Shown here piece after piece: positions 7,317-8,688 of a DNA stretch of 27,773 nucleotides (its first letter is position 1; each line of letters begins with the position of its first letter). The notes under the pieces are model-generated. The model saw only the letters and a list, made by a program, of their open reading frames with translations. It was not told where the DNA came from and ran no database searches. Made by a program: the position numbers and the translations under genes. The stretch is from a virus (lineage: Duplodnaviria; Heunggongvirae; Uroviricota; Caudoviricetes): positions 1 to 27,773 of the IMG/VR virus record IMGVR_UViG_2531839178_000008. One strand, 5' to 3'.

Positions 7317-7451
7317 TCAGCAGCTCGGATAAGAGCGGAAGTGCTGACGAACATGTTCGAGCTCACCGAAACGTATGCGGCAGTAACTGCGCACATAAAC
7401 CGGCTTGTCGTGTTCGTAGATGAAGTCATCGCGATTAACATCGTGAGCCAT
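7317..7451 (-). CDS. small ORF (44 aa) in the immunity region
   Basis: ATG at 7451 with AGGAG 8 nt upstream; MAHDVNRDDFIYEHDKPVYVRSYCRIRFGELEHVRQHFRSYPSC; not in the supplied ORF track, which lists overlapping frames instead. Confidence 0.4.
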   Translation of the reverse strand: MAHDVNRDDFIYEHDKPVYVRSYCRIRFGELEHVRQHFRSYPSC

Positions 7452-7602
7452 AGCTTTTCTCCTGTTTTTGTATACAGCCTGTTTACCCGAACAGGTTGTA
7501 GTTTGTTGGGAGAACCGCTATCCTTGGCTTGCGGTTGCCAAGGGTGTAGCGGTAGGTAATCCTCCATACACTTCGGAAATACTGGATATATTTCCGACCC
7601 AA

Positions 7603-7626
7603 AAAGCCCCGTTCCCTCGGGGCTTT
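7603..7626 (-). terminator. intrinsic terminator after the 63-aa gene
   Basis: AAAGCCCCG-TTCCCT-CGGGGCTTT, a 9-bp stem overlapping the stop codon at 7625..7627 and followed by a U-run on the leftward transcript. Confidence 0.55.
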
Positions 7627-7816
7627 ATTCTTTTGTTCCGCCATCAATCATCGCAAAAGATTCCACAATCAGACTGATACGCTTGGCTTCATCTTTTGTC
7701 AGGTCGCGAGGCAGGTTGCCAATGGTGACGATAAGATCTCCGCGCAATGGAATCGGCAGTTCAAATGTTTTTACACCAACCTGTACGTCAGCTACCGCCT
7801 TCTTCTTAGGTGCCAT
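7625..7816 (-). CDS. hypothetical protein (63 aa) in the cI-to-pL slot
   Basis: ATG at 7816 with AAGGAG upstream; MAPKKKAVADVQVGVKTFELPIPLRGDL...; ends at the terminator hairpin. Confidence 0.5.
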   Translation of the reverse strand: MAPKKKAVADVQVGVKTFELPIPLRGDLIVTIGNLPRDLTKDEAKRISLIVESFAMIDGGTKE

Positions 7817-8157
7817 CTTTTTACGCTCCTTTTTTTATTTACATCACCAACTGACACATTAATCTCACCATTCTGGTAGGAGATAAATTTATCAATAGCA
7901 CTTTGCATTCGGCTTTTGTATGCCTGCAAAGATGATTCAGAAGGTTTGCTTTCTGCTGAGTCTGCGTACGAACTTGCTAAGTTGGCAACGCTATAATCAC
8001 GGATATCGGCATCGGTGAAATCCGACCCAAGAACAGTAAGAAGGCGCAGGGAAGAGTCACGGAGATTGCGGGCTGTAGCATCATTGACGATACCAAGCTC
8101 AGGAAGCATCTGTAAGAAGTCCTGAAATGCTTTGATGGTGTAGCTTTTGGTTTGCAT
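7792..8157 (-). CDS. hypothetical protein (121 aa) in the cI-to-pL slot
   Basis: Protein-like composition; ATG at 8157 lies directly after a hairpin plus U6 with no ribosome-binding site. The 3' end overlaps the next gene across an A7 run (7830..7836); one extra A would fuse the two ORFs. Confidence 0.45.
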   Translation of the reverse strand: MQTKSYTIKAFQDFLQMLPELGIVNDATARNLRDSSLRLLTVLGSDFTDADIRDYSVANLASSYADSAESKPSESSLQAYKSRMQSAIDKFISYQNGEINVSVGDVNKKRSVKRWHLRRRR

Positions 8158-8184
8158 AAAAAAGCCTCATACAGTTGATGAGGC
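8158..8184 (-). terminator. hairpin plus U6 immediately upstream of the 121-aa ORF start (terminator or attenuator)
   Basis: Leftward RNA GCCUCAU-CAACUGU-AUGAGGC followed by UUUUUU and then AUG. Confidence 0.45.
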
Positions 8185-8346
8185 AATACTAATTTGATCG
8201 TCAAAACAAATCAAGACCCAAGAAACGATCGTTGATTCCTTTCTTTGTGACAATACAGTCAAATCAAGTTTTACAAGGATTACTTTTCTTCGATTACATT
8301 AAAGGCCGCACTTCTGCGACCATCCATCACCAAAATGTCTCTTCAC

Positions 8347-8688
8347 TCATCCGAAGAAGCAGCAATCCGGGTCAGCACGCACAAGCTCAAGCGCATCAGT
8401 CAGCGAAAGTTCAGTACTGTACTGATGCCATTTCATATCCTTCCGCATCCAATAGATTTTCCATCTATCCAGAGAACGTATGTACTTGATTCTTGCTGAT
8501 GGCAGGATGTTTGTTTCACCTGGGTTGCCCTGCCACACGGGGCGCTGTTCGCCGATATCTATCGTTTGGTCATTGATGCTATAAACAATATCCAGTTCAT
8601 TGCGGATATGTTCAGGCGGCCTTATGCTTTCAATGAATTGGTGAACTTCTTTTTTGACCGCTTGATATTCAAGGTCAGTGAACGCCAT
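8347..8688 (-). CDS. hypothetical protein (113 aa) directly downstream of the repressor gene
   Basis: ATG at 8688 with GAGGAGG 5 nt upstream, 37 bp after the repressor stop on the same strand; no family recognised. Confidence 0.6.
   Translation of the reverse strand: MAFTDLEYQAVKKEVHQFIESIRPPEHIRNELDIVYSINDQTIDIGEQRPVWQGNPGETNILPSARIKYIRSLDRWKIYWMRKDMKWHQYSTELSLTDALELVRADPDCCFFG

Follow-up and report, generated by a model that had tools for sequence, protein, structure and literature searches.

We found that the interval between the cI-like repressor gene and the pL-like promoter of a lambdoid phage early region is filled by two independent, apparently horizontally exchanged cargo units. The DNA that we analyzed, called the window throughout, is the 27,773-nucleotide (nt) IMG/VR virus record IMGVR_UViG_2531839178_000008 (positions 1 to 27,773; Caudoviricetes), whose early region is of the Shiga toxin (Stx) phage type. 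Unit 1 is a single gene for a DUF3024 protein of 113 amino acids (aa). Unit 2 is a three-part module made up of a gene for a 177-aa protein, a structured leader RNA of about 150 nt, and a 44-codon open reading frame (ORF). We call the interval the slot and its content the cassette. We consider the anatomical part of this description very probable; to the full statement, which includes a functional model in which both units serve the lysogen, we give a probability of about 0.45.

The cassette ORFs make up two separable units

An initial annotation of this DNA had proposed four independent genes of no recognizable family on the repressor strand between the cI-like gene and pL. All four minus-strand ORFs (113, 121, 63, and 44 aa) are present at the positions it had given (Table 1), and both borders of the slot could be located. 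The upstream border is the cI-like gene, which ends with its stop at 8726, and the downstream border is the pL-like promoter with OL-like operators, which lies upstream of the N-like gene. The number of genes did not hold up. Instead of four genes, we found two separable units, the DUF3024 gene and the three-part module, each of which occurs without the other. The lack of a recognizable family was borne out for two products, as the 177-aa and 44-aa proteins have no Pfam, NCBIfam, or PADLOC match, but not for the 113-aa product, which is Pfam DUF3024. By sequence criteria the cassette ORFs are real genes and not chance readings, because the DUF3024 match has an E value of 2e-31, the fused 177-aa protein has more than 1,000 homologous clusters, and the 44-codon ORF has a ratio of nonsynonymous to synonymous variation (pN/pS) of 0.07 to 0.16.

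One gene underlies the 121-aa and 63-aa ORFs

The 121-aa and 63-aa ORFs had been suspected to be one gene split at a run of seven A's. The run is there (7830..7836, seven T's on the plus strand), and one added base does fuse the two ORFs; the product has 177 aa, however, and not the approximately 185 codons that had been estimated. We found eight A's (A8) and an intact 177-aa ORF in 15 related loci. The seven-A form (A7) occurs only in the window and in two other loci, the viral contigs L036 and L037.

The closest relative of the window is the prophage adjoining ybhC in Escherichia coli FDAARGOS_944, with a cassette identity of 99.8%. Over 2.6 kb the two differ at four places, and two of these are single-base homopolymer losses in the window, one at 7830..7836 and one at 9150..9156. 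The second loss breaks the window's cI-like gene into ORFs at 8726..9130 and 9079..9462. All eight relatives with this cI have T8 at that place and an intact 235-aa protein, and the repressor frameshift is absent from every other locus compared. We found that over 9.7 kb (5411..15069) these two losses are the only indels between the window and a relative (L050) that is about 99.8% identical, and that they fall at the relative's only 8-nt runs. Homopolymers in the 27.8-kb window reach 7 nt at most, a length found eight times. Because the only indels in 9.7 kb coincide with the relative's only two 8-nt runs and the window has no run above 7 nt, we think it more likely that the losses in cI and in the 177-aa gene are homopolymer under-calling, a sequencing artifact, than biology. 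Real slippage is the less likely alternative, in keeping with the finding of A7 in three different contexts.

We rejected programmed frameshifting at the A run, since the run is not conserved in the family: A8 was seen only within the E. coli/Shigella lineage, with A5 in the Salmonella copy and no run at all in other copies. In the A7 allele, the ATG of the 63-aa ORF is preceded by AGGAG with a 9-nt spacer (7814..7830, minus strand), and this ORF overlaps the end of the 121-aa ORF by 25 nt. Since the 63-aa ORF has its own AGGAG and ATG, the halves could be made as separate polypeptides from that allele. Distant homologues do not share this internal start.

The 177-aa protein belongs to a large family and has a predicted core-binding fold

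We found that the 177-aa protein belongs to PHROG 2602, whose function is unassigned there. A word-based search gave 52 relatives of about 153 to 214 aa, and the named ones are all from Enterobacterales. A profile search of 1.84 billion representatives gave 1,093 clusters at an E value of ≤0.001, 430 of them at ≤1e-10. Nearly all of the 150 matches listed are 156 to 203 aa long and align end to end; a few are fragments of 60 to 70 aa and a few are longer forms of 238 to 264 aa. Judged by these searches, the family is large and unannotated. Literature searches with protein accessions and PHROG identifiers returned nothing relevant.

In the family alignment the N-terminal half is variable, and the C-terminal approximately 50 residues are almost invariant (KTFELPIPLRGDLIVTIGNLPRDLTKDEAKRISxIVESFA). 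A lysine-rich linker lies between the N-terminal domain and this C-terminal segment. AlphaFold2 (AF2) models residues 1 to 100 as a four-helix bundle with a predicted local distance difference test score (pLDDT) of about 88, and in this model the N-terminal half has the core-binding four-helix fold of tyrosine recombinases. Two weak sequence signals agree with this fold: the family profile aligns to lambda Int residues 76 to 157 (E = 0.9), and a distant family member touches Pfam Phage_int_SAM_1 (E = 0.0098). Sequence searches of the PDB gave only nonsignificant matches. We found no catalytic R-H-R-Y domain, as the protein ends at residue 177 and has no Phage_integrase match in Pfam; it is therefore not a recombinase.

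For the C-terminal segment, we considered and rejected an RNA recognition motif (RRM). The segment has only about 50 residues, and the likeness is at the level of a motif (xVxNLPxDLTxxEA) that resembles RNP2 and helix 1, with E values of 0.15 to 1.7. A profile built from 25 diverse C-terminal segments matched only RRM-type motifs (E of at least 0.15) and assorted DUFs. We regard the RRM-type likeness as a lead and not as a finding.

A conserved structured leader precedes a 44-codon gene

In the main subtype of the module, every copy has the same order: the protein gene, a GC-rich hairpin, about 150 nt of conserved sequence, an ORF of 44 to 45 codons, and a terminator. The copy in Leminorella keeps this whole arrangement, though its protein is only 33 to 34% identical. 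We found that the conserved sequence between the hairpin and the small ORF folds into a hairpin P1, a stem P2 (ACCGCUA/UAGCGGU) that encloses a hairpin P3, and a hairpin P4. Immediately 3' of P2 lies a sequence (in the window, UUCUCC) that is predicted to pair with the Shine-Dalgarno (SD) region of the small ORF (GGAGAA). RNAalifold on a plain MAFFT alignment missed two of the helices. The structure was therefore assembled from independent minimum free energy (MFE) folds, in which diverged copies share these helices, and tested by covariance-model alignment.

The covariance model, R1, gives the window 115 bits and 16 distinct copies 77 to 146 bits, and it detects nothing else above noise in 224 kb. 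In the R1-based alignment, 86.2% of cells are paired, compared with 30 to 46% when the partners are slid, and changes on both sides of a pair occur at 11 pairs (40 cells). The covariation score is 0.248 against a shuffle mean of 0.139 and was reached by 0 of 500 shuffles. The duplex between the SD and the anti-SD sequence has −8.3 to −11.9 kcal/mol in the window lineage, which is better than 97 to 100% of shuffles. These comparisons identify the leader as a conserved structured RNA whose helices are kept by compensatory changes. We found no Rfam match, IsrK included, at an E value of ≤1 in 6800..9600 on either strand.

The 44-codon ORF behind the leader encodes a small protein that we call type A (PHROG 21154). 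We found that it is 90 to 95% identical between copies whose partner protein is only about 43% identical, and its pN/pS against six diverged copies gave the values cited above. Because of this identity despite a diverged partner and because of the low pN/pS, we read the small ORF as a real gene under strong purifying selection. The Enterobacter-type copies (L016 to L018 and L042 to L048) carry, about 170 nt past the protein gene and behind the same leader, another 44-aa protein (MANGICPKCGNACEV..., with CxxC...CxC), which we call type B. Type B has a weak treble-clef zinc-finger match, and its ORF was missed by gene callers in L016 to L018, the three contigs with listed called genes. A short shared pattern, V-x-[VF]-R-x-Y-x-R, is all that suggests homology of types A and B. 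Neither small protein has a hydrophobic stretch (grand average of hydropathicity, −0.90 for type A and −0.14 for type B).

Hairpins and a promoter-like site delimit the module

The initial annotation had counted three terminator hairpins in the cassette. We found four on the minus strand (8321..8304, 8184..8164, 7626..7603, and approximately 7302..7280), the first three by a hairpin scan and the fourth by reading the sequence. Terminator-like sites number 10 in 6400..9900, compared with 3.3 ± 1.8 in shuffles. The hairpin directly after the 177-aa stop codon, T2, is conserved in all module copies with compensatory changes, and the terminator that closes the module, t3, is conserved behind the small ORF in other loci.

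The start of the 121-aa ORF, now that of the 177-aa gene, had been described as lying directly after a hairpin and U6, with attenuation-type control suggested. The arrangement is as described, with seven pairs and T6. The attenuation reading gave way to that of an insulator. Just upstream we found a promoter-like sequence, TTGATT-17-TAGTAT, which is the sole match in the window and occurs in 0 of 100 shuffles; in the alignment, the Salmonella copy (L010) has the same geometry with TTGATT-17-TATTAT. Its predicted start lies within the 5' arm of the hairpin before the ATG, and we therefore favor an insulator over a classical attenuator. The hairpin would be missing from transcripts that start at the module promoter and would form in those that read through from cI. 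L010 retains the hairpin with altered bases, and a single-nucleotide polymorphism at 8183 in the FDAARGOS_944 prophage (L001) turns a C-G pair into U-G.

DUF3024 is a separate unit

The 113-aa product matches Pfam DUF3024 over profile positions 2 to 112 of 112 (E = 2.4e-31; 108.7 bits against a cutoff of 24.9). It also matches the PADLOC model PDC-S43 over its full length (E = 7e-42) and belongs to PHROG 3467. In a preprint, PDC-S43 is listed beside the kinase system PD-T4-6 among the defense systems of one O157 strain; this list entry is the single literature mention of PDC-S43, and our literature search found no paper that mentions DUF3024. The AF2 model (pLDDT, 89.5) is a small helix-sheet-helix sandwich. 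Because this predicted fold has no enzyme-like features, it suggests a protein-binding factor.

As had been claimed, a strong ribosome-binding site, GAGGAGGA, lies in the 37 nt between the cI-like stop (8726) and the DUF3024 ATG (8688), and the hairpin scan found no hairpin within this gap. The strong SD, the short gap, and the lack of a terminator make the proposed co-transcription plausible, and DUF3024 is probably read in the same transcript as cI; this part of the earlier proposal stands as an inference only. The hairpin t1 behind DUF3024 is likely the end of this transcript. We found that t1 travels with DUF3024, and it has a full T6 tail in the VT2-Sakai type.

DUF3024 also occurs apart from the module. 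A copy with 97.5% nucleotide identity lies directly behind the unrelated 933W-type repressor and is followed by orf61 and the kinase gene stk. Behind the window-type repressor, DUF3024 is also found with other partners, DUF6978 and DUF1828. In VT2-Sakai it is a decayed remnant between cI and VT2-Sap23. We conclude from these arrangements that DUF3024 is a separate unit, because it is found behind the 933W-type repressor and with other partners, with t1 accompanying it.

The module is widespread, and the slot holds different cargo in different prophages

The protein gene, the leader, and the small ORF co-occur with or without DUF3024 and with or without cI. We found the module without either in Salmonella (beside dinI at the prophage end next to pepN), in Raoultella (in a D5-primase element), in Enterobacter (between the replication and capsid genes of a satellite-like element), and in Yersinia phage YP3, Serratia, and Leminorella. 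A scan of one genome per species added only one locus, that in Leminorella, because the peptide patterns were too specific. The module is truncated and lacks the small ORF in L037, and the downstream region is different in L038 to L040.

A diverged subtype, whose protein is 38.6% identical over residues 1 to 168, fills the cI-N slot of VT2-Sakai, the Stx2 phage 1717, 2851, and YYZ-2008, with about 46 phage records in all. In VT2-Sakai (NC_000902.1; L051, 9400..10900), the 173-aa family member VT2-Sap23 is followed by a 40-codon homologue of the small ORF and then a terminator. The 40-codon ORF is not annotated there, and VT2-Sap22, an annotated reverse-strand ORF that overlaps the leader and small-ORF region, is probably spurious. 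R1, run on the near-identical copy L007, does not detect the leader of this subtype; in the MFE fold of this leader, too, the SD region is paired.

Prophages with the window-type repressor differ in the cargo behind it, which can be this cassette, DUF3024 together with DUF6978 and DUF1828, a Clp-fold protease of the SDH type, or other small unknowns. Conversely, the cassette (at ≥99% identity) lies behind four repressor types: the window type, the 933W type (L027), a hybrid (L026), and that of L036. In L036 (IMGVR_UViG_2531839476_000015, 1700..3900), DUF3024 comes next after the repressor, then the 177-aa gene as its A7 allele, and then the small ORF. This repressor appears from its sequence to be lambda cI, which would place the cassette at the rexAB site. 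The rex-equivalent position of the cassette is well supported by direct positional evidence, and lysogen-type expression signals in the cassette sequence are likewise well supported. In published work, the cI-N region figures as a mosaic site at which accessory loci are found, and co-transcription of bstA with cI is documented.

Gene order in the window is red genes, kil, cIII, an Nmad5 gene, the N-like gene, the pL-like promoter and operators, the cassette, the cI-like gene, cro, cII, and the replication genes. Phage SH2026Stx1 has the same cassette at 94.9% identity. The FDAARGOS_944 prophage is decayed: its N-like gene is only a fragment (L001, 2438..2506), and it has ISEc20 and IS600 insertions.

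Three other features of the window are recorded here. The Nmad5 (nucleotide-modification-associated) gene at 5752..6435 (minus strand) adjoins the N-like gene downstream in the pL operon. A 968-aa Toprim/AAA_25 primase-helicase-like protein is encoded at 11229..14135 (plus strand) and has Hint and LAGLIDADG homing-endonuclease domains at about residues 379 to 634, which look like an intein insertion. In the nin region (15110..15872, minus strand), two genes overlap, one for a Gp49/HigB-like toxin (154-aa ORF) and one for an HTH_3 antitoxin-like protein (102 aa); in the closest relative their place is taken by a different pair, of the HigA/RelE type.

Table 1. Positions in the window of the slot borders, the cassette genes, and their signals
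Feature	Coordinates	Strand	Basis and remarks
N-like gene	6437..6820	minus	ORF list; intact in the window
pL-like promoter, TTGACC-17-TATCTT	7097..7069	minus	promoter scan
OL-like operators, ATAACC..GGTTAT repeats	with pL within 7069..7150	minus	sequence reading, compared with the OR region at 9440..9520
Terminator t3, ACCCGGC/GCCGGGT + TTTCTTT	7272..7302	minus	read from sequence; closes the module
44-codon ORF (type A small protein)	7317..7451	minus	conservation; PHROG 21154 match
Leader RNA, ~150 nt, helices P1 to P4, anti-SD UUCUCC	7449..7601	minus	ends at the small-ORF ATG
Hairpin T2, AAAGCCCCG/CGGGGCTTT + U5, GC-rich	7603..7626	minus	directly after the 177-aa stop codon
177-aa gene (predicted core-binding-domain protein)	7625..8157	minus	split into 121-aa and 63-aa ORFs by a one-base loss at 7830..7836
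63-aa ORF (part of the 177-aa gene)	7625..7816	minus	ORF list
121-aa ORF (part of the 177-aa gene)	7792..8157	minus	ORF list
Hairpin GCCTCAT/ATGAGGC + U6	8158..8184	minus	scan; abuts the 177-aa ATG at 8157; SD (GAGG) in the 3' arm
Promoter-like site of the module, TTGATT-17-TAGTAT	8186..8214	minus	sole match in the window, 0 in 100 shuffles
Hairpin t1, after DUF3024	8304..8321	minus	scan; weak U tract TTTAATG
DUF3024 gene, 113 aa	8347..8688	minus	Pfam, PADLOC PDC-S43, PHROG 3467
SD of the DUF3024 gene, GAGGAGGA	8699..8692	minus	3 nt before the ATG at 8688
cI-like repressor gene, HTH_3 + Peptidase_S24 (Pfam)	8726..9432	minus	frameshifted at the T7 run 9150..9156

A model for the cassette and the explanations that compete with it

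We propose that both units serve the lysogen and not lytic growth. According to this model, DUF3024 would be transcribed with cI from pRM or pRE, with the transcript ending at t1, and would act by binding. The module would be read from its own sigma-70-like promoter, with the hairpin before the ATG blocking read-through from upstream. The small protein would be the effector and would be kept off at two levels, by T2 and by sequestration of its SD, with the 177-aa protein as the sensor or regulator that binds DNA. The module would then act in phage-phage conflict during lysogeny, by exclusion or abortive infection. The analysis itself shows what the genes are, that two of the ORFs fuse, how the N-terminal domain folds, that the leader is conserved and covaries, and that the units are modular and where they lie. 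Promoter use, co-transcription, translational gating, and the defense role are what we infer here, and a putative defense or exclusion role of the cassette is plausible. A more specific version, which we think improbable, is a hitherto undescribed three-component conflict system in the rex slot of Stx phages of clinical importance (VT2-Sakai included) and in satellites: the fast-evolving N-terminal domain of a catalytically dead, recombinase-derived DNA-binding protein would detect phage DNA that is entering or being replicated, the invariant C-terminal segment of this protein would free the SD-sequestering leader, an RNA of a new class, and a tiny metal-binding protein would be the effector.

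Several observations weigh against the model. The sole direct pointer to defense is PDC-S43, which is a candidate defense model only, and the absence of database matches for the 177-aa and 44-aa proteins noted above counts against it as well. The linker and C-terminal segment of the 177-aa protein are modeled by AF2 with low confidence (pLDDT, 40 to 69). The promoter-like site matches 8 of 12 consensus positions, which is below the scan cutoff. The evidence for covariation in the leader comes from about six lineages and an alignment that was fitted to the model, the MFE z-score of the window sequence is −7.5 on both strands, and the 27 G-U cells against 18 A-C cells favor the sense strand only mildly. 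An upstream SD-like GGAGGA that competes for the anti-SD would make the leader a switch; it is convincing as a competitor only in some lineages, so that such a switch is only partly supported. The small proteins are hydrophilic (maximum 19-residue Kyte-Doolittle mean, ≤0.32) and are therefore not membrane toxins of the type I kind. Finally, a core-binding-domain protein fits a regulator of recombination or transcription equally well.

The module could thus be a regulator whose core-binding protein binds core sites or operators and tunes integration, excision, or transcription, with the zinc-finger-like small protein as a cofactor and the leader setting the ratio of the two. The presence of the module in several kinds of integrative elements and the weak treble-clef match of the type B protein are in keeping with this. 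We nevertheless consider it unlikely: the module sits in cargo positions (the rex slot and the prophage end by dinI) and not beside int/xis, and it is present or absent among near-identical immunity regions, which would be unusual for a core regulator. The N-terminal domain is moreover the variable part, and the small protein is nearly invariant. We take more seriously, and still doubt, that the cassette is dead cargo, with real frameshifts in the 177-aa gene and in cI that mark a decaying prophage or a clear-plaque mutant. The A7 allele of L036 and L037 has different neighbors, the L037 module is truncated, PHROGs has a separate 63-aa family, and the closest relative is decayed, with a partial N gene and insertion sequences. 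Against dead cargo, both of the relative's 8-nt runs are one base shorter here, with no other indel in 9.7 kb at 99.8% identity, the ceiling of 7 nt in the window is typical of homopolymer under-calling, and the remaining early region of the window is intact, N included.

An addiction unit similar to a toxin-antitoxin (TA) system is less likely than either of these. It would stabilize the element, with the small protein as toxin and the 177-aa protein or the leader as antidote. The small ORF is apparently doubly silenced, by a hairpin and a paired SD, in a logic that resembles the read-through and RBS-sequestering isrK-orf45, and the C-terminal segment of the partner is conserved together with the small protein. 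We found no likeness to known toxin or antitoxin families, however, and no hydrophobic peptide; the promoter scan found no promoter for an antisense RNA on the plus strand in 7317..7626, where the element folds equally well on both strands; and some loci lack the small ORF (L037) or have a different downstream region (L038 to L040). Least likely by a wide margin are four separate genes with the 121-aa gene under classical attenuation. The seven-pair hairpin and U6 directly before the ATG would fit this, but the 121-aa and 63-aa ORFs are one gene in the 15 relatives and in every listed family member save a few short fragments, the promoter-like site overlaps the hairpin so that predicted transcripts begin inside its 5' arm, and we saw no alternative antiterminator structure upstream of the hairpin.

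If the proposed model is right and the module is a defense or addiction system, it would extend the catalogue by a new architecture and offer a handle on interactions between Stx prophages and phages, with a bearing on the spread of toxin phages. At a minimum, the analysis yields a correct gene model and a covariance model for the cassette. In the Stx2 phage of E. coli O157:H7 Sakai, the cI-N slot is occupied by a diverged unit 2, whose small ORF is unannotated.

Comparison with known systems

The place between cI and N is a recognized site of virulence and exclusion cargo that lysogens express. It is occupied by exclusion functions in other phages: rexAB in lambda, stk in 933W, and nun in HK022. 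The cassette has the same position and orientation as lambda rexA-rexB, between cI and pL on the repressor strand. The rex region of lambda is also read from an internal promoter, pLIT, and the cassette is probably likewise read in part from the repressor promoter and in part from an internal one. The two differ in their parts, as the cassette consists of a DUF3024 gene, a core-binding-domain protein, a structured leader, and a 44-codon ORF. None of the three cassette products has a RexA or RexB match in Pfam, NCBIfam, or PADLOC, and none is a polytopic membrane protein like RexB (maximum 19-residue Kyte-Doolittle mean, ≤0.81 for all products). The stk region of 933W (cI-DUF3024-orf61-stk) uses the same cI-N slot and shares the DUF3024 gene; it has orf61 and stk behind DUF3024, where the window has the three-part module and no kinase. 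The bstA gene of BTP1 is an accessory or defense gene in the same slot, and the cassette has no BstA homologue. Tyrosine recombinases (lambda Int residues 75 to 160, XerD, and IntI4) have the core-binding domain in common with the predicted fold of the 177-aa protein, which differs from them in having no catalytic or arm-binding domain and in ending in about 50 unrelated conserved residues.

Two kinds of systems resemble the leader and small ORF. In type I TA systems (hok/sok and tisB/istR), a short ORF lies behind a long structured 5' leader with a paired SD, as in the module, but the peptide of the module is hydrophilic and has a conserved protein partner upstream. In isrK-orf45-anrP of Gifsy-1, a structured RNA behind a terminator hairpin conceals the ribosome-binding site (RBS) of an ORF of about 45 codons, and expression needs read-through and refolding. 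The window has no Rfam match to IsrK, the location and neighbors are different, and no antirepressor is coupled downstream; the logic of a terminator followed by a hidden RBS, in a prophage, is the same. The module is a widespread and unannotated three-part unit with a new structured leader that is absent from Rfam, and the two portable units in the slot appear to be uncharacterized so far. Unit 2 joins the DNA-binding domain of a recombinase, as predicted and without the enzyme, to a structured RNA from outside Rfam and a 44-codon gene that annotation often misses.

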